From positions 1 to 35,788 of the forward strand of contig PCTT01000027.1 of assembly GCA_002771585.1 (NCBI GenBank): a DNA stretch of 35,788 nt, in the 5' to 3' direction. This stretch comes from Candidatus Campbellbacteria bacterium CG22_combo_CG10-13_8_21_14_all_36_13 (lineage in GTDB: Bacteria; Patescibacteriota; Minisyncoccia; Phycocordibacterales; PCTT01). A program made the translations under genes and the position numbers. Shown here piece after piece: positions 2,151 through 32,835 of the stretch; within the stretch, counting starts at the first letter, position 1, and each line of letters opens with the position of its first letter. The notes under the pieces are model-generated. The model was not told where the DNA came from, made no database searches, and saw only the letters and a list, made by a program, of their open reading frames with translations.

Positions 2151-2371
2151 TGCGGGATACGAGAATCGAACTCGTGTCTCAACCTTGGTCCCAGAACATT
2201 TTTGCTATTTTGTGCGAGTACCGAGAATCGGACTCGGGTTTCAAGCTTGGGAAGCTTGCGTCATACCACTAAACTACACTCGCAAAAACGTACGGGATTC
2301 TCAAAAAATATTGTCGCATAGCTCCTTATTTTTTGGAAGAAGGTCACGTCATACCACTAAACTAATCCCGC
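2151..2371 (-). tRNA. Interrupted tRNA-Gly-like gene: 5' half 2340-2371, 3' half 2151-2186, separated by 153 nt
   Basis: Minus strand 5' half: GCGGGAT TA GTTT AGTGGTA TGAC G TGACC TT. 3' half: AA GGTTG AGAC ACGAG TTCGATT CTCGT ATCCCGC A. Acceptor stem has 7 perfect bp, the T-loop is canonical, and the anticodon stem TGACC/GGTTG pairs with two G-U. The body is paralogous to the inner Gly gene. Confidence 0.45.
2213..2283 (-). tRNA. tRNA-Gly(CCC)-like, 71 nt, no encoded CCA, non-canonical T-loop
   Basis: Hand-folded cloverleaf: GCGAGTG TA GTTT AGTGGTA TGAC G CAAGC TTCCCAA GCTTG AAAC CCGAG TCCGATT CTCGG TACTCGC A. The T-loop reads TCC instead of the near-universal TTC (position 55 is C). Confidence 0.6.
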
Positions 2372-6550: not shown

Positions 6551-8956
6551 TTATTCAGTTGGTGTTTTTACTGTCTCAGAAATAGGTAAAGTATCCCTTG
6601 ATTCAGGACTTTCATCTATTGGTGGTTTAGCACCATCAAATGGATCCTTACCTGCTTTTAGATTATCTAGAATAAGTTTAACTTCTGTGTTGTCTGGGTT
6701 TAGAGCAGCAACTTCCTCAAATTGCTTTATCGATTCTGTAACTTTATTTTCATAATAATAACTCAAACCAAGGAAATATTTTGCATTCGAGTAATTAGGA
6801 GAAAGTTCAACAGCTCTTTCGAATGAAGGAATAGCTTCTGCATATTTTTTCTCGTTATAGTGCAACAAACCAAGCTGGAAAAATACAGTAGGGTCATTTG
6901 GTGCAATAGTTGCGGCTGCTTGTGTGGATTTGATTGCAGCTTCTATGTTGCCTTCAGCTATTTCTATTTGTGACAAAAAGAATACTGCCTCTGTATAATT
7001 ACTCTTCTCTTCTAATGCTTTTATAACATACCCACGAGCCGCCTCATTATCCTCATGTGCTGCCTCTACCCTAGCAAGAGTTAGATAAAGAAGCGGACTA
7101 TGTGGATTAAGTTCAATAGCTTTTGAATACGCAGAAATCGCACTGTCATACGCGCCGTCAACCTTTAGAGAAACTAGTGAACCATATATGTCTCCTAGGG
7201 TTGACCAGTTTTCATAATTTCTATTATCGTAACTTGTTGCAGCGGTTGCGTTTGTTATTGCATCTGCTAAAACACTTTGAAACTGTGCACGAGCCTCGTC
7301 TTGAGGAAGCTCTGTGTTTGATAGAATCTCATTCAATCTAGCCACATTAAGTCGCGCCATTGATCTATAGTAAAGATCGCTTTCATTCCACCTTATAGCA
7401 TTTTGTAATTTCTTCTCCGCCAAATCAGCATCATTGTTTGTATTAAAGGCAAAAAGCGCTTTTTGGAAGTTTATAAATGAAATATATTTCTTTGTATAAA
7501 CATAACCAAGTGTAGTCGTTCCTATAATTGCCACAACAATCAAGAATACAGATACAAATCCCATTTTGGGGTTTTGTATAAAACTAACACGAATTGTCTT
7601 AATTTTGCCAGAGATGATTTGTGACGCCACAAACACACCAGAAAACAGAAAAGCTAAAACTAATATCGTAACGTTTGGTAAATATATAACAGCAAAAACC
7701 CACAGGAAGAGTGCGGAAAGGAAAGAAGATAAAGAAATATACCTACTTACCAAATCTTCTGTACCAGATGACAAAATACCCCTAATTCCATAAAACAAAA
7801 GCAACCCAAGAAATGCTAGCCATGACAAAAATCCTACGATTCCAGTGGTTGTTAGTGTTGATGGAATAAACCCAATACCAGAGTTAAAGTTTGTATTCCA
7901 GAAAACGGTACTATTAATTCCTGCTGGTTTATTTTGTAGCCACTCTATCCCAAACCTGTTTGGCCCTGCACCAAATAATAGATCACTCTTTATTGCGCTA
8001 CTACCAATATCGAATGTAGCACCCCAAGATGGACGAACCTCTACTTGAGATATGTTTAATTTAGTGTTAACAAATGTACCAATTGTTCCGCTAAATAGGA
8101 CAAAAACTATTGCCAAAACAAATACAATGGAAGATGGTACTGATAAAAATTTTTTAATTGACCATTCAGAAGAATTTTCTGCCGTATCGCCCATGTTTCT
8201 AAATAAAACCTTATAGACGAAGAAAAACATTCCCGATATACCAAGCATCACCCAAATTGCTGTGAAGTTTATAACTGCTGTAAATACTAACGATAAAACA
8301 AGACCAATGTATAAGAATATTCTTATCATTCCCTTTGGCTTTAAAAGCTCTAAAGTTGAAAGGAATAAAAGAGAAAACAATCCAAAAAATACACCAAGGT
8401 CGTTCCACTTACCAACCAGATTTGATGTTGAGTCTGAAAGCAATCCTCCAAAAGAGAGAAACCCGGGTCCAAAAATAAGTCTTAGTAATTGAAATAGAGA
8501 AACTATTACAAATGAAGCGAACAATGCGAAATATATTTTTATTAGCTTTGTGTTCTCTCTAAAGAAAACAGGAACTAAGAAAAATAATAAAAAGAGCATT
8601 AATATACCCACAAACGTATCAATTTCATAGCCCTGGCCGATTATGGATATCTTTGTTACGCCAGAAAACAATGACGCTAGAAGATATGAAATTGGCACAG
8701 CTATTGCAGAAAAAAATAAATATCCTTTCGGAATTTCTAACTTACCTTCTTTTAGTCTAGAAATAAGCCAGAGCAAAAGAGGCACCACTGACGCGATTGC
8801 AAGCAACATTACCTTTGTAAAGGTAAATGAGAAAACTTTCGAAGGAATAAAAAAGAACGGCAAAAAAGCCACCACAAAGAGTATTACCCATGTGGAAATT
8901 GTGCTAAGCACAGAACGAGAGCTTGTTGAAACGCTCGTGGTATTTATATTTTCCAT
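6551..8956 (-). CDS. O-antigen ligase/polymerase-like (Wzy_C-type) polytopic membrane protein with C-terminal TPR repeats
   Basis: 801 aa with more than 10 TM segments, followed by about 250 aa of TPR-like repeats (AISAYSKAIELNPHSP, AIPSFERAVELSPNYSNAKYFLG). Confidence 0.55.
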   Translation of the reverse strand: MENINTTSVSTSSRSVLSTISTWVILFVVAFLPFFFIPSKVFSFTFTKVMLLAIASVVPLLLWLISRLKEGKLEIPKGYLFFSAIAVPISYLLASLFSGVTKISIIGQGYEIDTFVGILMLFLLFFLVPVFFRENTKLIKIYFALFASFVIVSLFQLLRLIFGPGFLSFGGLLSDSTSNLVGKWNDLGVFFGLFSLLFLSTLELLKPKGMIRIFLYIGLVLSLVFTAVINFTAIWVMLGISGMFFFVYKVLFRNMGDTAENSSEWSIKKFLSVPSSIVFVLAIVFVLFSGTIGTFVNTKLNISQVEVRPSWGATFDIGSSAIKSDLLFGAGPNRFGIEWLQNKPAGINSTVFWNTNFNSGIGFIPSTLTTTGIVGFLSWLAFLGLLLFYGIRGILSSGTEDLVSRYISLSSFLSALFLWVFAVIYLPNVTILVLAFLFSGVFVASQIISGKIKTIRVSFIQNPKMGFVSVFLIVVAIIGTTTLGYVYTKKYISFINFQKALFAFNTNNDADLAEKKLQNAIRWNESDLYYRSMARLNVARLNEILSNTELPQDEARAQFQSVLADAITNATAATSYDNRNYENWSTLGDIYGSLVSLKVDGAYDSAISAYSKAIELNPHSPLLYLTLARVEAAHEDNEAARGYVIKALEEKSNYTEAVFFLSQIEIAEGNIEAAIKSTQAAATIAPNDPTVFFQLGLLHYNEKKYAEAIPSFERAVELSPNYSNAKYFLGLSYYYENKVTESIKQFEEVAALNPDNTEVKLILDNLKAGKDPFDGAKPPIDESPESRDTLPISETVKTPTE

Positions 8957-9067
8957 ATTAATTAATTAATAACCTCGGGAGATTCATCCCACTTTTAATG
9001 CTTATATTATAGATAAATTAAACTCATACATCAAACGTGTATATCTATTGTTTTTTCACGTTTTCAT

Positions 9068-9094
9068 AGACAAAAGAATAAAATGTGGTAAAAT
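9068..9094 (+). promoter_or_regulatory. Candidate promoter of rnpB: TAGACA (-35-like) and extended -10 TGgTAAAAT
   Basis: TGGTAAAAT at 9086-9094 lies 7 nt before the first G of the P1 helix (9101). TAGACA is at 9068-9073, giving a short 15-nt spacer. Confidence 0.45.
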
Positions 9095-9100
9095 ATTTGT

Positions 9101-10244
9101 GGTTTTGGTATCGGACAATCGCGATGTCATCGCTTCGCGCTGACGCGCGGACTAACGCAGATATAGACGCAGACCTACGCAGAAATCGAATATCAGTTTT
9201 CCGCGTTAGTCCGCGTTTAGTCCGCAAGATCAGCGCGCCAATGCGAAGCAGTGACGTTGAGGAAAGTCCGGACACACGCCCGTCGTACCTCACTGCGTTC
9301 GGTACTAAGTCAAAAGTCTATAAAGCCCATAATGTCAAAAGTCACAAACTTTCGACTTTATAGACATTCGACTTTGAACTAAAGTGCCGAGCTTAGCGAG
9401 GTGCGACGGACAGCATGGTGGTGCCCTACATTTTCACTTTGTGAAAATCGGGTCCGAACAATCTGTTTAAGGATTGTTTTAGGAGGTAATACCCATCGAC
9501 CAGTGCAGCGCACTGGAAATTCGAAATCCGAAATTCTAAATTCGAAACTTTTTAAGTTTTAATATTTTAAATATTAGGCTAAAACCACACGGGATTATTT
9601 TATATTAAAATAATCCCGTGTGGTTCGCCCGACAAAAATCTCGAAGGATTTTTGTTTAGGGACTTAAATATTGCCCGCCCGGACGAATGTCCCCCGCCAG
9701 AATCCAGCCCGAAAGATTCATTCTGGCGGGGACTCTGTCGGGCTGGATTCGGACAGGTTTCATATTTAGATATTCGTGCTTCGTGCTTCCAATGCGTTGC
9801 ATTGGTTAGAGGTGCGAGCAGAGACGCCCAAATCGAAAGAAGAGGGATTCCCTAGTGGAATAGTTCCATGGCAACATGGGTGCTAAAACAAAATGTTTTT
9901 AACATTTTGTTCGCACGAACATTTTGTTTACAAAATGTTCTAGTGAAACGGCAAAATCCTCACTTGTGTGCAAGACCGCGCCCCAGTGCAGCGCACTGGT
10001 GGAGAGTCGCTTGAGCATGTTGGTAACAACATGCCTAGATAAATGATTGTCGTCTGTCGTACCTCACTGCGTTCGATACGATAATTCTAAATTTAAAGTT
10101 TTGAATTTTGAATGAATTTTAAATGAATTAATTTAAAATTAAAACATTCGAAATTGAATGGAAATTTTAAATTAGAAATTTTAAATTCATCCGAGCTTAG
10201 CGAGGTGCGACAGATACAGAATCCGGCTTATAGGTACCAAAACC
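9101..10244 (+). ncRNA. rnpB: RNase P RNA (bacterial type A-like core) expanded to about 1144 nt by multiple insertions
   Basis: GAGGAAAGTCCGG at 9259-9271. ACAGAATCCGGCTTA at 10216-10230. P1 pairing GGTTTTGGTATC (9101-9112) with GGTACCAAAACC (10233-10244). GCTTGAG-CATGTTGGTAACAACATG-CCTAGATAAATGATTGTC (about 10009-10052) aligns with the E. coli M1 P15/P18/P2 region. Confidence 0.8.
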
Positions 10245-10276
10245 TTGTCCCGCATACTGCGGAGACAATTTATATG

Positions 10277-10304
10277 AAAAAACTCGCTTAATTGCGAGTT
10301 TTTT
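10277..10304. terminator. Bidirectional intrinsic terminator between rnpB (+) and the RNR gene (-)
   Basis: AAAAAACTCGC-ttaatt-GCGAGTTTTTT: stem flanked by an A-run and a T-run. Confidence 0.7.
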
Positions 10305-10356
10305 CATTGTTTTTAAACTTTATAGACTTTCGACTTTTTTGACTTTATAGATTAAT

Positions 10357-12660
10357 CTAAATTTCACATGCTCCACCAACACAAGCAAGCTCTTTTGCCC
10401 CTATTGTTTGATCATCAAGCTCATATATAACAAGCTTAGAAAAATCTAGCTTACTAAGCTCTGCGCTCCTTCTTTCAAATTCTTCTTTTGTTATCTCCTC
10501 ATAAGGCGCTAGTTGATAAACATGCTCATTCCTTGGTAAAAATGACAAACCACCAACAATATCCCAGTTTTCATAAACAAAATTTGCAACAGCAAGCCAC
10601 TCATCTGGCCCAACATAAACAGTTGCAGAAGGATTATGTTCTGTAAAGTGCACTTTTAGTCTTTTCCACTCATTTAAGAAATCAATTGCTGATACTTGAT
10701 CTTTAAAAACAGCCCCCTTTGGTGCTTTTATTGGGAATTCAAGTACCATTGTGGTCGCATTCGAAGTAGAGTAACCAACCTCTGGATGAATTGGCACACC
10801 TTGTTCACGTGCTAGTTTTAGAAGAGGGTCGTTAACACTGATCCTAACCCTTCTAATAAAGTACGGAGCATACCATGGATGCATACCAGACCCAACACCA
10901 AGTAATTGCCCTGAATTTCCATGTGGTTTTACACAAGTTACAGCGGTTGATACATTAATTCCTATTTTTTTGGCATACTTACGGTTTACTATAAGAGCTT
11001 CGTTTCTTAACGACTCCAAGACTTTATCATCTCTAACAATCTTGTTGTCAAAATAACCAGTTAAAGAAACCCCCAACAAAGCTTCTTCATCACAATTCTT
11101 TTTCCAGTCTTTTGAAATATATTTAAAATCTGTAAGAGAAGCCTGATATGTACCCAGCATTGTAGCAAGTCGCATTTTCCTTTTTAAGCTTTTTTCTGTG
11201 TCTTCGGGACGAATCACAATACTTGTAAGATTACAAAACTGTCTAGATTTTAGATAAATCTCACCACAAGGATTCATGCCTGGTTGTTTTTCATACTTTA
11301 GATTCTCCCACCGGCGAGCTGGTAACTGTTTCTCCAAACCTCCCCTGTTGTATATTCCGCGCTCCCCAGACCCAGAGCTTACCAGTGCCGACCACTCCTC
11401 CAAAAACTCTGTAGCGGTCGGTTTTGCCTCATATACAGCAGAGTTATTGGCCATACTACGTTGTCCATTTGTTTGCCAAAAGGCACCCTTCTTTGCATCT
11501 CTCAAATCTACATCATCAAGAGCAGAAAGTGATATTAATGCACTTCTTCTTACCCCACCGGCAACCACAATAAGGCCAATTTGACAAATTATATCGTGCA
11601 TATCAAGTGTTGAAAGACGACGCCCTTGCTTTGTAAGCATCTTCTTTTTTGTAAATTTCATCAACTCCTGAAGCGGTGCTGGTCCAGACGCCCTTCCTCC
11701 CATAGTTAGAAGTCTATCTCCGGCGGGTCTGATTTTTGAATAATCAATTTCAACATCCTTACCAGAAGACCATGCCTCACAAGCACCAACAAAAGCATCA
11801 CACCAGCCCTCCTTGCTATCCTCTACTACAATAGTTGGAGCTTTCTCTCCGGTTTGCTTTTGTATTTGTGGAAATTGCTCTACATTCTCTGGCTCAACCG
11901 AATAACCACATCCAGCACCACACATAGACACATACATTATATCTGCAAGATCTTTCCATCTTGTTGGTGCAATATAGGCGCAGTTGTATGCACACACATT
12001 TGTTGCCCTACAAGCCTTTCCAGCAGACCACAAAAGTCTCATTGATGGGCAAACTTCTTGTTTTAATATTCCCTCCCTAACCTCATCATATTCTTTTGCA
12101 GAAAACTTATTACCAAGATTCTCTTTCATAAAGTCCATAAACCTATCTATAGACTCAATCCATGTCTCTCTCCTACCCAAATCATCCCTCCATCTTGAAT
12201 AAAATTGATAGAATATAAATTCCTGATAAGGGGTCTTGAAATACTTACTTGCCTCTTCTATCTTCTGAACAACCTCTGGTTTTACCCTTAATTCGTTTCC
12301 ACGGACCTTTGCTCTTTCGTTTCTATACAAAATAAATGCTTTTGCCGCTTTAACATAATTACCAAGAATAAGCTCCTTCTCTACAGCGTCCTGTATACCC
12401 TCAACTGAAGGAACGAAGTTTTTAAATCTTTTACTTATACGTACCAAGTCTGAAAGCACCCTATTAGCCACAAGCTCCGCCTCTTCTATTGAGCCCTCTT
12501 CTGCCGCATTCATCGCTTTATATGTAGCGTTTGTAACTTTACTAAGATCAAAAGGAACTATAGAACCATCACGTTTTAGTATTCTCTTAACAAAGCTATT
12601 TTCAATCTTTTTTTTACCTTTTTTTGTGTTTTTAGGCGACTTTTGAGCTGTTTTTGGCAT
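10357..12660 (-). CDS. nrdJ: Adenosylcobalamin-dependent (class II) ribonucleotide reductase, monomeric RTPR-like, with N-terminal ATP-cone
   Basis: 767 aa. ATP-cone-like N-terminus (VKRILKRDGSIVPFDLSKVTNATYKA). C-terminal redox pair CVGGACEI resembles the CEGGAC tail of the Lactobacillus leichmannii enzyme. Internal NPCGEI active-site motif. Confidence 0.8.
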   Translation of the reverse strand: MPKTAQKSPKNTKKGKKKIENSFVKRILKRDGSIVPFDLSKVTNATYKAMNAAEEGSIEEAELVANRVLSDLVRISKRFKNFVPSVEGIQDAVEKELILGNYVKAAKAFILYRNERAKVRGNELRVKPEVVQKIEEASKYFKTPYQEFIFYQFYSRWRDDLGRRETWIESIDRFMDFMKENLGNKFSAKEYDEVREGILKQEVCPSMRLLWSAGKACRATNVCAYNCAYIAPTRWKDLADIMYVSMCGAGCGYSVEPENVEQFPQIQKQTGEKAPTIVVEDSKEGWCDAFVGACEAWSSGKDVEIDYSKIRPAGDRLLTMGGRASGPAPLQELMKFTKKKMLTKQGRRLSTLDMHDIICQIGLIVVAGGVRRSALISLSALDDVDLRDAKKGAFWQTNGQRSMANNSAVYEAKPTATEFLEEWSALVSSGSGERGIYNRGGLEKQLPARRWENLKYEKQPGMNPCGEIYLKSRQFCNLTSIVIRPEDTEKSLKRKMRLATMLGTYQASLTDFKYISKDWKKNCDEEALLGVSLTGYFDNKIVRDDKVLESLRNEALIVNRKYAKKIGINVSTAVTCVKPHGNSGQLLGVGSGMHPWYAPYFIRRVRISVNDPLLKLAREQGVPIHPEVGYSTSNATTMVLEFPIKAPKGAVFKDQVSAIDFLNEWKRLKVHFTEHNPSATVYVGPDEWLAVANFVYENWDIVGGLSFLPRNEHVYQLAPYEEITKEEFERRSAELSKLDFSKLVIYELDDQTIGAKELACVGGACEI

Positions 12661-17397: not shown

Positions 17398-17405
17398 GCA
17401 CAAAG

Positions 17406-17490
17406 CGGAGGCGGCGAGATTCGAACTCGCGATACCTTGCGGTATGCCACCTTTCCAAGGTGGTGGAATAAACCACTATCCGACGCCTCC
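17406..17490 (-). tRNA. tRNA-Ser(GGA), 85 nt, class II with long variable arm, no encoded CCA
   Basis: Hand fold: GGAGGCG TC GGAT AGTGGTTTA TTCC A CCACC TTGGAAA GGTGG C-ATACC-GCAA-GGTAT-C GCGAG TTCGAAT CTCGC CGCCTCC G. Confidence 0.85.
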
Positions 17491-19184: not shown

Positions 19185-20994
<1,810 letters not shown>

Positions 20995-26883: not shown

Positions 26884-26917
26884 CTTAAGGTATAGGGTTT
26901 AGGGTATAGGACGCTAT

Positions 26918-27106
26918 GAATTTTCAATTTTCAAACAATTTCCAATGAAATAATTTTTAATGTAGTTTAAGATTTAGATATTTGTTCGCCGGCTGGCGAA
27001 TTTGATATTGTTTAGGGTTTCGTGCTTCGGATTTCGAATTTCGTTGATATTCCTAATTCATAATTCTAAACAAAATATTCTTAATTCTTAATTCATAATT
27101 CAGAAC
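26918..27106. repeat. Composite intergenic repeat, copy A: AATTTTC heptads, TTTAGATATT, GC palindrome TTCGCCGGCTGGCGAA, core TTTGATATTG..GTGCTTCGGATTTC, ATTCNTA heptads
   Basis: Collinear with copy B at 29372-29526 in the same orientation. Confidence 0.85.
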
Positions 27107-27107
27107 A

Positions 27108-30925: not shown

Positions 30926-31041
30926 GGTTAATTTTTAATTTTGAATTTTTAATTTTAATTCAATTTTGAATTTTTTAATATTTTAAAATTTGTTCATTTT
31001 AAATTCATTCAAAATTTTAAATTTAAAATTCATACTTATTT
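30926..31041. repeat. AT-rich short-period repeat spacer (AATTTTA/AATTTTGA family)
   Basis: Direct reading. The same family fills the rnpB insertion at 10083-10190. Confidence 0.8.
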
Positions 31042-32013: not shown

Positions 32014-32120
32014 ATGATTTAAGTTAAAAGTCCATAATGTCCATAAGGTCTATAAAGTCTTGATCAAGCCTGATAATAATTTTGAAATTTCGATAGATAA
32101 ATCATTATGTTTATTATATC

Positions 32121-32228
32121 GTTTTAAATTTTGAATTTTATTCATTATGATTTGTTTCGTATTCTTGCCCTGTACCGAAACTTGTTTCTGGTTCTGGGGT
32201 CGTACTTCGAATTTCGAGTTTTAAATCT
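32121..32228. repeat. Divergent copy of the intergenic repeat module (AATTTTGA heptads, GC-richer insert 32166-32203, CGTACTTCGAATTTCGAG)
   Basis: Shares TTTGTTTCG..., CTTCGAATTTCG motifs with copies A, B and C. Confidence 0.6.
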
Positions 32229-32256
32229 ATATATACTTTTGACTTTAAGGACTTTA

Positions 32257-32601: not shown

Positions 32602-32732
32602 CCCATTAGAGCCAGACCACGACCAGCGTGTTCTGGACTTTTATTATTATTTATAATTGTTTTTAACATATCAGTTTTTTAAGATGTCGCTATTATCTGT
32701 TGTGGTCGTAGGTCTCTAACGGGATTCATCCC
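32602..32732 (-). promoter_or_regulatory. Structured 5' leader with a 16-codon uORF (32679-32729) that pairs with the region just upstream of the DUF360 start; paralogue of 13334-13456
   Basis: Interrupted inverted repeat CCCATTAGAGCCAGACCACGACC (32602-32624) / GGTCGTAGGTCTCTAACGGG (32704-32723). Direct repeat TTCATCCC at 32597-32604 and 32725-32732. Confidence 0.45.
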
Positions 32733-32771
32733 GTTAGTTAAAAATTAATTTAATTAATTACAAAGATTGAT

Positions 32772-32835
32772 TTCGACTTTTTACTTTATAAACTTTCGAC
32801 TTTATGGACTTTATAGACTTTATGACTTTACGACT
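32772..32835. repeat. Array of GACTTTAT-family repeats (about 9-10 nt period) running into the secA stop region
   Basis: TTCGACTTTTTACTTTATAAACTTTCGACTTTATGGACTTTATAGACTTTATGACTTTACGACTC. The same family occurs at 9305-9378, 10317-10350, 22397-22430, 22574-22621, 32021-32060 and 32235-32275. Confidence 0.85.

Follow-up and report, generated by a model that had tools for sequence, protein, structure and literature searches.

A giant RNase P RNA gene with a class A-type core and six peripheral hairpin expansions in an uncultured Candidatus Campbellbacteria bacterium

RNase P RNA is the RNA enzyme that trims tRNA precursors. The reported size range of this molecule is 250-550 nt, with a mean of 374 nt for class A (PMC7191817), and departures from the standard architecture have been described in several bacteria. 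In 10 of 35 circular CPR genomes, Lui et al. (2021) found rnpB below the Rfam thresholds, with helices that were either considerably extended (P15 being the case shown) or missing (PMC8172020). Repeats inside RNase P RNA genes have been described as well, namely, the Rickettsia palindromic elements (RPE), which have inserted into the genes for tmRNA and for RNase P (M1) RNA (Ogata et al. 2002, as summarized in Delihas 2007, PMC2229807), and the STRR repeats that heterocyst-forming cyanobacteria carry in rnpB (Vioque 1997, as it appears in the reference list of PMC2858038). Helix extension in CPR and insertion of repeats into the rnpB of Rickettsia are thus already published; the scale and the module shuffling described here are not.

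The gene analyzed here belongs to a member of Candidatus Campbellbacteria (CPR), an uncultured ultra-small bacterium, and occupies positions 9101-10244 (+ strand) of the window, by which we mean the whole stretch of DNA analyzed, a 35.8-kb contig (35,788 nt) that is the portion of the genome examined. From P1 to P1', this class A-type RNase P RNA gene comprises 1144 nt, which lies outside the 250-550 nt range (PMC7191817) and is about twice the largest size range that we found in the literature. Compared with the 339-nt compact ortholog from a related genome (L008), the gene is approximately three times the normal length, with a surplus of about 805 nt (70% of the gene) distributed over six sites: P3, the J5/7 hairpin, the 5' strand of P8, P9, the region after P14, and J2/4. 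The P4-to-P4 span is 972 nt in the window and approximately 1130 nt in a sister strain (L137), compared to 262-731 nt in 79 sampled GTDB CPR loci, for which such spans are preferable to whole-gene lengths that are unreliable at the 5' end (a fixed 250-nt flank). We consider it likely, with a rough probability of 85%, that this is the functional RNase P RNA gene of the organism, in which a normal core carries six peripheral hairpin domains. A first-pass annotation of this DNA had described the locus as an RNase P RNA gene enlarged about threefold around a normal core, and orthology, synteny and covariation bear this out. Its estimate of some 700 extra nt in at least five places captured the large inserts but fell short of the actual surplus and number of sites, the 61 nt (9424-9484) that split the 5' strand of P8 having been missed. 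Similarly, the enlarged P3 and the twin hairpins that it described are present, but with spans different from those assigned (about 135 nt at 9113-9250 and 9886-9939, respectively). The features of the locus are as follows.

9067-9094, + strand: promoter-like site with a -35 element TAGACA (9067-9072), a 16-nt spacer and an extended -10 element TGgTAAAAT (9086-9094)
9101-9120, + strand: 5' strands of P1 (9101-9112) and P2 (9114-9120), pairing with 10233-10244 (12/12) and 10045-10051 (7/7), respectively
9122-9259, + strand: P3, an irregular hairpin of 138 nt (29 nt in L008), its base pairing in register with the P3 of L008
9259-9276, + strand: J3/4 and the 5' strand of P4, GAGGAAAGUCCGG (P4 pairs 9264-9271), followed by the 5' strand of P5 (9273-9276)
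9279-9411, + strand: J5/7 hairpin, 133 nt (a 15-nt hairpin in L008), GC-rich in the basal stem and AT-rich in the interior
9417-9496, + strand: 5' strand of P7 (9417-9420) and P8, in which G9421-G9423 and G9485-G9486 pair with 9492-9496 around the loop UAAUA
9424-9484, + strand: insertion of 61 nt in the 5' strand of P8, forming two hairpins
9497-9809, + strand: P9 extended to 313 nt, base in register, closed by a helix of about 20 bp that joins 9497-9516 to 9789-9809 and topped by a branched distal domain of 272 nt (9517-9788)
9810-9879, + strand: core of the specificity domain, comprising the 5' strands of P10/P11, J11/12, P12 (CCC 9827-9829 with GGG 9844-9846), P13 (9847-9861) and P14 (9866-9879, GCAA loop)
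9880-9916 and 9917-9940, + strand: twin hairpins after P14
9941-10051, + strand: 3' half of the core, comprising J14/11, the 3' strands of P11/P10/P7/P5 (9951-9968), P15 (9974-9976 with 10006-10008), the P16/17 hairpin (9983-9999), P18 (10015-10034, GUAA loop), J18/2 and the 3' strand of P2 (10045-10051)
10052-10215, + strand: hairpin insert of 164 nt in J2/4, where some RNase P RNAs have P19
10216-10244, + strand: remainder of J2/4 and the 3' strand of P4, ACAGAAUCCGGCUUA (P4 pairs 10223-10229), followed by the 3' strand of P1 (10233-10244)
10246-10317, + strand: 3' trailer hairpin (10246-10270) and predicted intrinsic terminator (stem 10274-10307 and a T-run)

Scanning of the whole window with Rfam at the gathering thresholds detected two tRNAs only and no match to RNase P RNA. 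In a permissive scan, the class A model RF00010, for which the gathering score is 100 bits, produced a local match at 9911-10046 (32.7 bits, E = 3.7e-8) that covers P15-P18 only, and the 5' part of the locus scanned separately (9095-9430) gave no Rfam match. The failure of the model on P1-P4 is due to the insertions themselves (805 nt), and with a score this low, annotation would miss the gene. Because the permissive scans reach only P15-P18, the full-length placement rests on alignment with orthologs, and it is the alignment with L008 that assigns every helix, including P1-P4, which the covariance-model check suggested by the first-pass annotation left unplaced. The comparison with related genomes, proposed at the same time, yielded a syntenic compact rnpB well above the Rfam threshold (L008:3711-4049(-), 339 nt, 124.9 bits over the full RF00010 model). 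The window gene aligns with positions 1-334 of this ortholog, end to end, in ordered blocks of high identity, a correspondence well above what chance would give, and shares with it both position and orientation within the conserved gene order reductase-[rnpB]-TPR-MurJ-LepA. Another compact rnpB, in L011, is located in the same gap and scores 119.8 bits with RF00010. The sizes of the genes in syntenic relatives are 337, 339, approximately 457, 484, 584, 692, 1144 and approximately 1290 nt, and the sites that are filled differ among them.

Outside of the expansions, the molecule is that of a class A RNase P RNA (RF00010; E. coli M1 type): P1-P5, P7-P15 and P18 come in the canonical order, neither the P4 strands nor the J-regions deviate from the consensus, and P14 and P18 are capped by GNRA loops. 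It departs from this class in having a replaced L9, an interrupted P8 strand and a local hairpin in J5/7. Both P4-forming strands that were reported initially, GAGGAAAGTCCGG at 9259-9271 and ACAGAATCCGGCTTA at 10216-10230 of the plus strand, are indeed present, and the P4 strands GAGGAAAGUCCGG ... ACAGAAnCCGGCUUA retain the universally conserved nucleotides and the bulged U; P4 (9264-9271) does not differ from the consensus, its partner strand is 10223-10229, and all 7 pairs are the same as in L008 and 13 other homologs. The closing P1 pairing of the initial description also stands, with 12 of 12 pairs canonical and recovered in the unconstrained MFE fold, and so does the noted resemblance of the P15/P18/P2 stretch to M1, given that P15, P18 and J18/2 match the RF00010 consensus nearly base for base. 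P1-P3, P5, P7-P12, P13/P14, P15 and P18 follow in the canonical order, with all listed pairs canonical. P4 and P10/11 are identical to those of L008, and among the other canonical helices (P1, P2, P5, P7, P8, P12, P13 and P18) there are 7 double compensatory changes relative to L008, located in P1, P2, P5, P12 and P18, including changes in both of the first two helices and one in P5 (9273-9276 with 9965-9968). The specificity core (9810-9879) matches L008 in identity blocks of 42/48 and 13/15, with all pairs canonical, and the 3' half of the core is placed by the local RF00010 match, identity blocks shared with L008 and canonical pairs. In the unconstrained fold of the 1144 nt, the inserts fold apart, and P1, P3, P9, P14, P16/17 and P18 are recovered; P2, P5, P7, P8, P10/11, P13 and P15, which are short and long-range, are absent from the MFE structure, and the assignment of these helices comes from homology.

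In an alignment of 14 sequences that included the trimmed, 323-nt core of the window gene, 95.3% of the cells pair, compared to 83.3% in shuffles and approximately 40% with slid partners, and both sides have changed in 30 of the 54 pairs, a count that was reached by none of 500 shuffles. The core is 97.8% identical between the window and L137, the corresponding value for third codon positions in the neighboring gene being 61%, and 80-84% identical between the window and L008, L009 and L138, versus 47-53% at third positions. Judging from these comparisons, the core is under strong purifying selection. That the locus falls under the Rfam threshold and that 70% of it is extra sequence are features that one might expect of a decaying pseudogene, inactivated by repeats, its role in tRNA 5' processing taken over by another rnpB or by a protein-only RNase P encoded elsewhere in the genome. 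However, purifying selection on the core, complete with compensatory changes, the consensus-identical P4 and J-regions, and the syntenic orthology with compact genes that appear functional make this very unlikely; the sole interruption of a core strand, the bulge in P8, is itself conserved in L044, and both giant variants, those of the window and of L137, have an intact core. No rnpA gene was found in the 35.8-kb window, and a metagenome scan with a core motif specific for the subclade retrieved no additional contigs.

A gene with internal repeats assembled from a metagenome also raises the concern that the assembler joined repeats into a normal rnpB, the more so as contigs of the sister variant break within the repeated modules. 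Such an artefact is, nevertheless, extremely improbable: four independent assemblies, from four samples and two pipelines, agree over the 1271 nt of the locus (100% identity), two partial contigs are in accord with them, and the rearranged sister variant (L137 type) is reproduced at 99.95% identity in a JGI and an ENA assembly. Moreover, homologous expansions are present in the unrelated MAGs L009, L026 and L044.

Each of the inserts folds into a closed structure, with z-scores between -7 and -12 (dG -62.8, z = -8.1 for P3; -60.5, z = -12 for the J5/7 hairpin; -58.3, z = -8.4 for the J2/4 insert), and the closing stems of P3, J5/7, P9 and J2/4 are approximately 20-26 bp or longer. Three of the expansions are conserved in distant genomes. 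The P8 insertion, which can be compared with the uninterrupted P8 of L011 (GUGGG-UAAUC-CCCAU), is also present in L044, with 4 compensatory and no broken pairs. The closing helix of P9 has 19 of 20 canonical pairs, 18 of them in the MFE structure, and the ends of P9 show conservation with covariation in L044 and L009, a single pair in total being broken. The layout of the twin hairpins is shared with the Wolfebacteria locus L026, where 2 pairs are compensatory and none is broken. From these patterns, the P8 insert, the P9 extension and the twin hairpins can be recognized as conserved, lineage-specific domains. Among the tertiary elements of RNase P RNA, the L14 loop docks on P8. L18 docks on the same helix (PMC8457005), so with the P8 strand interrupted and L9 replaced by about 300 nt, some of the tertiary contacts may be altered.

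The remaining expansions show relationships to each other and to intergenic DNA. The basal stem of the J5/7 hairpin recurs at J2/4 within the same gene, the two stems being paralogous. The AT-rich interior of the J2/4 insert matches a spacer of the window (30926-31041) in 87 of 107 positions (z = 15.9) and also matches the groES-groEL spacer of L009, a genome whose own J2/4 carries the same stem around a shorter interior; the interior of the J5/7 hairpin matches the spacers 32014-32256 and 32602-32819. The GC-rich stems of the modules are found in rnpB only, so that the dispersed-repeat character is confined to the AT-rich interiors. In the approximately 1290-nt (about 1.3-kb) rnpB of L137, the same hairpin modules occupy other sites: a 97.7% identical copy of the window P3 sits at J2/4, and an element homologous to the P9 extension of the window is found at P16/17, with 55 of 64 positions of its interior matching the spacer 20820-20994, while the J5/7 hairpin is shared (131/133 identical). 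Thus, the J2/4 and P16/17 modules differ between the sister strains, and both giant variants keep the same intact core. No clear case of a target-site duplication was detected for the dispersed repeats, only a GTCAT microhomology at the J2/4 junction of L137. A candidate motif, AAATYCGAAAT with its variants, occurred 8 times in 38.9 kb of rnpB sequences and 9 times in 614 kb and was dropped, the genes concerned being few and related. Scans of viral contigs for the two GC-rich module stems yielded nothing beyond chance matches of seed length, in GC-rich DNA that is unrelated, and give no sign that phages carry the modules. The rnpB genes of the window and L137 are 97-100% identical, compared to 70-85% for the protein genes, and all three markers make the two strains sister lineages; lateral transfer of a giant allele between these strains was considered, and vertical descent with constraint would also fit.

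Given that group I introns are present within rRNA and tRNA genes of CPR (PMC8172020; PMC9698310), one could imagine that the inserts are self-splicing group I or group II introns, whose removal would ligate the exons into an RNase P RNA of normal size. We regard this as highly improbable: permissive Rfam scans of 8900-10500 and 9095-9430, taken to an E value of 10, detected no intron family, the inserts (61-313 nt) are simple hairpins without a recognizable catalytic core, and most of them lengthen existing helices in register, unlike introns. There is also no homing-endonuclease or reverse-transcriptase ORF; the only ORFs of at least 80 aa in the locus are those of 82-92 aa that overlap P3.

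What happens to the inserts in the RNA is a separate question, and here we lean, on balance, towards retention of most of the additions in the mature molecule. Cleavage of the insert stems by an RNase III-like enzyme, after which the inserts would be discarded without religation, in the manner of the intervening sequences of 23S rRNA, and the core helices would hold the pieces of a fragmented RNase P RNA together, seems the less probable outcome but is by no means far-fetched. Four inserts (P3, J5/7, P9 and J2/4) close with stems of at least 20-26 bp; the J2/4 and P16/17 modules vary between the sister strains as dispensable elements would; and the rRNA genes of CPR are rich in insertions, for which metatranscriptomics has been reported to support removal by self-splicing (reviewed in PMC9698310). 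On the other hand, six cuts would leave about 7 pieces, several of which would measure 20-35 nt and depend on helices of 4-7 bp to stay in place, an arrangement that would probably be unstable with one small protein, and the three conserved expansions keep both sequence and structure across distant genomes, beyond what a discarded stem would need. The literature that we searched contains no fragmented RNase P RNA. More tentative still, and in our judgment rather doubtful, is the proposal that the mature RNA acts as a ribozyme at its full 1.1-1.3 kb, with the expansions as selected parts and with modules that actively copy themselves between permissive sites in structured RNAs. The inserts are long hairpins in which both strands fold equally well, and as a test of selection at the RNA level, strand asymmetry gave a negative result (-465.6 kcal/mol for the sense strand versus -463.8 kcal/mol for the antisense strand overall, with single inserts going either way), as did G-U pairs, examined as a sign of such selection on the inserts. 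Substitution mapping in the younger inserts (window versus L137, L009 and internal paralogs) gave too few or mixed changes to indicate constraint.

Under the reading we favor, that of a functional gene with peripheral additions, transcription of the gene and catalytic activity of its product are inferred from the sequence. The promoter-like site at 9067-9094 is the best in the region, with 10 of 12 consensus matches and an upstream TG, as judged by consensus match only; the region contains 5 such sites versus 4.0 expected from shuffles, that is, no excess. The extended -10 element that the first-pass annotation placed exactly 7 nt before 9101 is there, as a promoter predicted by consensus, and puts the predicted transcription start at about 9101, seven nt past the -10 hexamer; a similar sequence, TGtTGTAAAAT, immediately precedes P1 in L044. 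The stem at 10274-10307 is the sole terminator-like site in the region. On this account, rnpB would be transcribed from its own promoter, antisense to both neighbors, and stop at this intrinsic terminator; the core would then fold like that of any class A RNase P RNA, through the P4 pseudoknot, L8 and the GNRA loops L14 and L18, and would cleave the 5' leaders of pre-tRNAs, with the additions projecting away from it. An older, lineage-specific set of additions (the P8 insert, the long P9 helix and the twin hairpins) would be kept by selection, and a younger set would consist of AT-rich palindromic repeats of intergenic spacers together with hairpin modules copied between sites within rnpB.

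Insertions of comparable character are not without parallel. The RNase P RNAs of other CPR come from the same group of organisms and show the same symptom of extended helices and sub-threshold scores, but the study of them by Lui et al. reports no kilobase-sized genes, expansion at six sites, repeat-derived interiors or movement of modules within the gene (PMC8172020). In their AT-rich interiors, the J2/4 and J5/7 inserts behave like RPE, which, as described by Delihas, are dispersed palindromes of approximately 100-150 nt that form a long stem-loop in an essential structured-RNA gene, apparently without destroying it (PMC2229807); the Rickettsia cases in that account are, however, single insertions, whereas the window gene has nested layers, GC-rich stems restricted to rnpB, and duplication between sites, and some of its expansions are old and conserved rather than recent insertions. 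The intervening sequences (IVS) of bacterial 23S rRNA, which are excised, and the expansion segments of rRNA, which are retained, are likewise stem-closed domains at helix tips of an essential catalytic RNA, vary among relatives and leave the core intact, although the host RNA is rRNA rather than RNase P RNA; the reference IVS stem is 28 bp, and P3, J5/7, P9 and J2/4 of the window close with about 20 bp or more. In cyanobacteria, the STRR repeats reportedly lie in a single helix (P12), with a modest gain in size. As cited in the secondary source, they resemble the present case in being genome-wide repeats inside an RNase P RNA gene and differ in being short tandem repeats.

The locus is an essential gene that is invisible to the standard covariance model, and the same holds for relatives of 457-584 nt; hence, a 'missing RNase P RNA' in CPR can be an artefact, and rnpB serves as a check of genome completeness (PMC8172020). 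It also shows how heavily a bacterial ribozyme can be loaded while the core remains untouched, with the sites that tolerate additions, namely, P3, J5/7, P8, P9, P12-P14, P15-17 and J2/4, reused across CPR lineages. To our knowledge, no natural split RNase P RNA has been known previously, so if the RNA proved to be fragmented in vivo, it would be the first. If, instead, the 1.1-1.3-kb RNA is the mature ribozyme, it would be by far the largest bacterial RNase P RNA, its expansions might, for example, substitute for lost tertiary contacts or provide binding platforms, and rnpB in these bacteria would amount to an ongoing natural experiment in the gain of expansion segments by a ribozyme. Because close strains share modules at differing sites, and the interiors of these modules are shared with intergenic repeats, the genes of 339, 584, 1144 and approximately 1290 nt provide a stepwise series for the origin of expansion segments, a process that otherwise has been inferred mainly for rRNA.

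The RNase P RNA gene (rnpB) occupies 1,144 nt, from P1 to P1', of a 1.4-kb ORF-free gap in a window with about 35% G+C and with housekeeping genes for LepA, MurJ, GroES/EL, GatB, Obg, SecA and RNase J; the flanking genes, which encode a TPR protein and an adenosylcobalamin-dependent ribonucleotide reductase, both lie on the opposite strand. The signals reported in the first-pass annotation are in place: both P4-forming strands lie on the plus strand (GAGGAAAGTCCGG at 9259-9271 and ACAGAATCCGGCTTA at 10216-10230), the P1 closure (9101-9112 with 10233-10244) pairs at 12 of 12 positions, and the extended -10 found exactly 7 nt before 9101 belongs to the best promoter-like site of the region (TAGACA-16 nt-TGgTAAAAT, 9067-9094). 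The sole terminator-like site is at 10274-10307; this 34-nt hairpin (ATGAAAAAACTCGCTTAATTGCGAGTTTTTTCAT) has one copy in the window and two (about 8366-8400 and 8930-8963) in L007, one of the two contigs of a sister strain, where one lies on each side of an acetyltransferase gene that has been inserted between rnpB and the reductase gene. Two ORFs that overlap the GC-rich P3 hairpin, of 82 aa (9045-9293, minus strand) and 92 aa (9085-9363, plus strand), are probably spurious and could be miscalled as genes by automated annotation. The helices, with positions assigned by homology, are as follows.

Helices and insertions of the window rnpB gene (all on the plus strand)
9101-9112 with 10233-10244, +: P1
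9114-9120 with 10045-10051, +: P2
9122-9259, +: P3, expanded from 29 to 138 nt
9264-9271 with 10223-10229, +: P4
9273-9276 with 9965-9968, +: P5
9279-9411, +: J5/7 hairpin, expanded from 15 to 133 nt
9417-9420 with 9961-9964, +: P7
9421-9423 plus 9485-9486, with 9492-9496, +: P8
9424-9484, +: inserted hairpin pair, 61 nt, inside the 5' strand of P8 (GUG^GG)
9497-9809, +: P9, extended in register by a helix of about 20 bp with a 272-nt branched domain at its tip
9810-9815 with 9951-9960, +: P10/11
Within 9827-9879, +: P12, P13, P14
9880-9940, +: inserted twin hairpins after P14
9974-9976 with 10006-10008, +: P15
9983-9999, +: P16/17 hairpin
10015-10034, +: P18
10052-10215, +: inserted J2/4 hairpin, 164 nt

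The extra sequence claimed at first, some 700 nt in at least five places, is real, but its amount and coordinates needed refinement: the excess is about 805 nt, making up 70% of the gene and spread over six places, the hairpin pair in P8 having been missed. Every addition is a closed fold, with z-scores from -7 to -12, and in an unconstrained fold of all 1,144 nt the additions remain separate and P1, P3, P9, P14, P16/17 and P18 form as expected; the short long-range helices are absent from this thermodynamic fold.

At the Rfam gathering threshold, no RNase P match is obtained at the locus. A permissive scan with RF00010, the family of bacterial class A RNase P RNA, matches locally at 9911-10046 (32.7 bits, E = 3.7e-8); in this match P15, P18 and J18/2 follow the family consensus nearly base for base, as the initial comparison with E. 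coli M1 had for P15/P18/P2. This generic covariance model places that part but not P1-P4; the 5' part scanned alone gave no match. Three variants of 457-584 nt from relatives (L013, L012 and L009) are also missed at the gathering threshold.

The window's reductase protein is 100% identical to one at NCBI from 'Candidatus Campbellbacteria bacterium CG22_combo...', which assigns the window to a CPR/Patescibacteria bacterium. The gene order reductase-gap-TPR-MurJ-LepA is kept in contigs with progressively more distant reductase homologs, with gaps of about 530 to about 1,400 nt. In L008, where the reductase is 87% identical, the gap contains an RNA of 339 nt that has a full-length RF00010 match (124.9 bits) and is oriented relative to its neighbours as in the window; the L011 gene, of 337 nt, scores 119.8 bits. 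In a gap-tolerant alignment, window positions 9103-10241 correspond to positions 1-334 of the L008 RNA; the aligned blocks keep their order, are 75-100% identical and have long insertions between them. By synteny, compact genes and ordered blocks, the window locus is the ortholog of a normal class A rnpB. The compact L011 gene (7570-7906) is inverted relative to its neighbours, with an extra 157-aa ORF alongside, and CYTH, SIR2_2 and DUF87 genes upstream of the reductase gene (L011:231-3856) may form a defence island. Near the syntenic locus of L013 (2204-3605), a bAvd-like gene adjoins a reverse transcriptase gene (RVT_1), the hallmark of a diversity-generating retroelement.

Four contigs, each from a different sample (three from ENA, one from JGI), carry the 1271-nt locus at 100% identity, and two partial contigs agree with it. 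P4 and P10/11 are identical in the window gene and in L008; seven double compensatory changes separate the two genes in P1, P2, P5, P12 and P18, and no core pair is broken. When the window gene, trimmed to its 323-nt core, is aligned with 13 homologs, standard pairs fill 95.3% of the alignment cells, against 83.3% in shuffled alignments and about 40% with slid partners, and both-sided change affects 30 of the 54 pairs, a level reached by none of 500 shuffles. Also present are L14 (GCAA), L18 (GUAA) and L8 (UAAUA); in class A RNAs, L8-P4 and L18-P8 are the chief contacts between domains (PMC8457005). Core identity to relatives is 80-98%, compared with 47-61% for the third codon positions in the neighbouring reductase gene. 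The intact pairs, the covariation, the loops and this conservation argue strongly against a pseudogene. The locus is an RNase P RNA gene about three times the normal length, as first proposed, now supported by orthology and core structure, and its core is intact; we infer that it is transcribed into a catalytically active RNA, with the mature state discussed below. The analysis covered 35.8 kb of this genome, beyond which another rnpB or a protein-only RNase P may be encoded. Despite the lack of an encoded 3' CCA in the window's tRNA-Gly(CCC) (2212-2283, minus strand) and tRNA-Ser(GGA) (17405-17490, minus strand) genes, the RNase P RNA retains the GG-containing 3' side of the L15 loop (CUGGUGGAGAG).

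Among syntenic relatives, rnpB measures 337-339 nt (L011, L008), about 457 (L013), 484 (L012), 584 (L009), 692 (L138), 1,144 (window) and about 1,290 nt (the sister strain, L137/L007), and the filled insertion sites differ from genome to genome. The distance from P4 to P4 is 262-731 nt across at least 79 CPR loci of GTDB representative genomes, at least seven of them above 500, and reaches 972 nt in the window and about 1,130 nt in L137; insertions of 25 nt or more concentrate at J5/7, P9, P12-P14, P15-17 and J2/4. Spans of 519-731 nt occur in L111, L050, L084, L085, L089, L026 and L028, Saccharibacteria and one Parcubacteria MAG among them, so enlargement of rnpB is widespread in CPR.

The sister strain, assembled twice independently with 99.95% agreement, carries the same modules at other positions. 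Besides its own P3, it has at J2/4 a hairpin sharing 97.7% identity with the P3 extension of the window, and its P16/17 holds an additional homolog of the P9 extension, with ends common to both (CCAGTGCAGCGCACTGG-AAATTCGAAAT ... GTGCTTCC-AATRCGTTGCATTGG). The basal stems of the window's J5/7 and J2/4 hairpins are alike over about 26 nt (90-96% identity). The displaced modules and the similar stems indicate that modules are copied between sites of one gene. The sister gene (L137:3072-4246, minus strand; L007:8979-9806, minus strand) is larger still, by estimate about 1.29 kb; both contigs stop inside repeated modules, so its 5' end is unassembled. Inserts included, the two rnpB genes are 97-100% identical, whereas the adjoining protein genes are 70-85% identical in DNA and 50-62% at third positions, which points either to strong constraint acting on the RNA as a whole or to a recent exchange of rnpB alleles.

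The AT-rich interiors of the inserts are dispersed repeats. The J2/4 interior matches the window's gatB-obg spacer at 87 of 107 positions (z = 15.9) and also a relative's groES-groEL spacer, two other spacers are matched by the J5/7 interior, and the interior of the P9 element in L137 matches the window's groES-groEL spacer at 55 of 64 positions. In L009 the same J2/4 stem encloses a far shorter interior, consistent with nested growth. Spacers at 30926-31041, 20820-20994, 26884-27107, 32602-32819 and 10310-10356 are made up mostly of AT-rich repeats, palindromic or of short period (such as GACTTTATAGA/TTCGACTTT and GATATTGTTTCGAATTTCGTGCTTCGG), of families common to the rnpB interiors, and suggest that a small CPR genome harbours a REP- or MITE-like repeat system. 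A short palindromic motif type (GAAAUCCGAAAU/AUUUCGGAUUUC) is found in L058 (rnpB J5/7 region), at L084:2648-2686 and at window 9514-9545, that is, at differing sites of rnpB expansions in the window clade and two Saccharibacteria; 8 copies inside rnpB and 9 in 614 kb outside are too few for statistics. STRR repeats reportedly occur within cyanobacterial rnpB (Vioque 1997), and Rickettsia palindromic elements are described as inserted in tmRNA and M1 RNA genes (Ogata 2002, as cited in PMC2229807).

Other expansions are apparently older. Against 0.94 Mb of other CPR loci, all insert matches fall inside another rnpB gene. A Wolfebacteria MAG (L026) repeats the window's arrangement, in which P14 is followed by the two hairpins (two compensatory, no broken pairs), and a Nomurabacteria MAG (L044), in a different gene neighbourhood, has the two-hairpin insertion in the P8 strand (four compensatory, no broken pairs). 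L044 and the window also have the P9 closing helix in common, with covarying central triplets (AGC/GUU in the window, UAC/GUA in L044, AAA/UCU in L009). The P8 insertion and P9 extension of L044 lie at 7600-8000, in a locus cut off at 8000. The syntenic relatives L008, L138 and L011 lack both expansions, and this patchiness therefore implies repeated loss or lateral transfer. Between window and sister, identity is 61/61 in the P8 insert, 131/133 in J5/7 and 64/65 in the twin hairpins, at least as high as the 64/67 of the P10-P14 core. By sequence comparison, the P8 insert, the P9 closing helix and the twin hairpins are conserved structural parts of the predicted transcript. For the younger inserts, sense and antisense folding are equal, so that G-U pairs give no evidence of RNA-level selection, and substitution mapping was underpowered.

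On the evidence, the locus is best read as a class A ribozyme core of normal type with peripheral, independently folding domains. Some of these domains would be kept by selection, whereas others could arise where repeats insert, or modules duplicate within the gene, at permissive sites. Introns are unlikely because permissive Rfam scans of the locus matched no intron family at E up to 10 and the locus has no suitable ORF. RNase III-type trimming of long stems, with a precedent in 23S rRNA intervening sequences (PMC4990558), is a serious alternative for the younger modules. Nevertheless, we favour retention of most additions in the mature RNA because three of them are conserved well beyond the need of a discarded stem, and because six cuts would presumably leave about seven pieces, several of only 20-35 nt, held by helices of 4-7 bp.

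By core structure and orthology the locus belongs to class A, but it scores below the family threshold and lies outside the size range, surveyed at 250-550 nt (PMC7191817). In 10 of 35 circular CPR genomes, RNase P RNA scored under the Rfam thresholds and either lacked helices or had 'large extensions of helices' (Lui et al. 2021, PMC8172020). As a general phenomenon, enlarged CPR RNase P RNAs are already known; the literature searched yielded no kilobase-sized bacterial RNase P RNA, multi-site modular expansion or fragmented RNase P RNA. For an RNase P specialist, the size and modular dynamics of this gene would come as a surprise, and through them the origin of ribozyme expansion segments can be tested directly.
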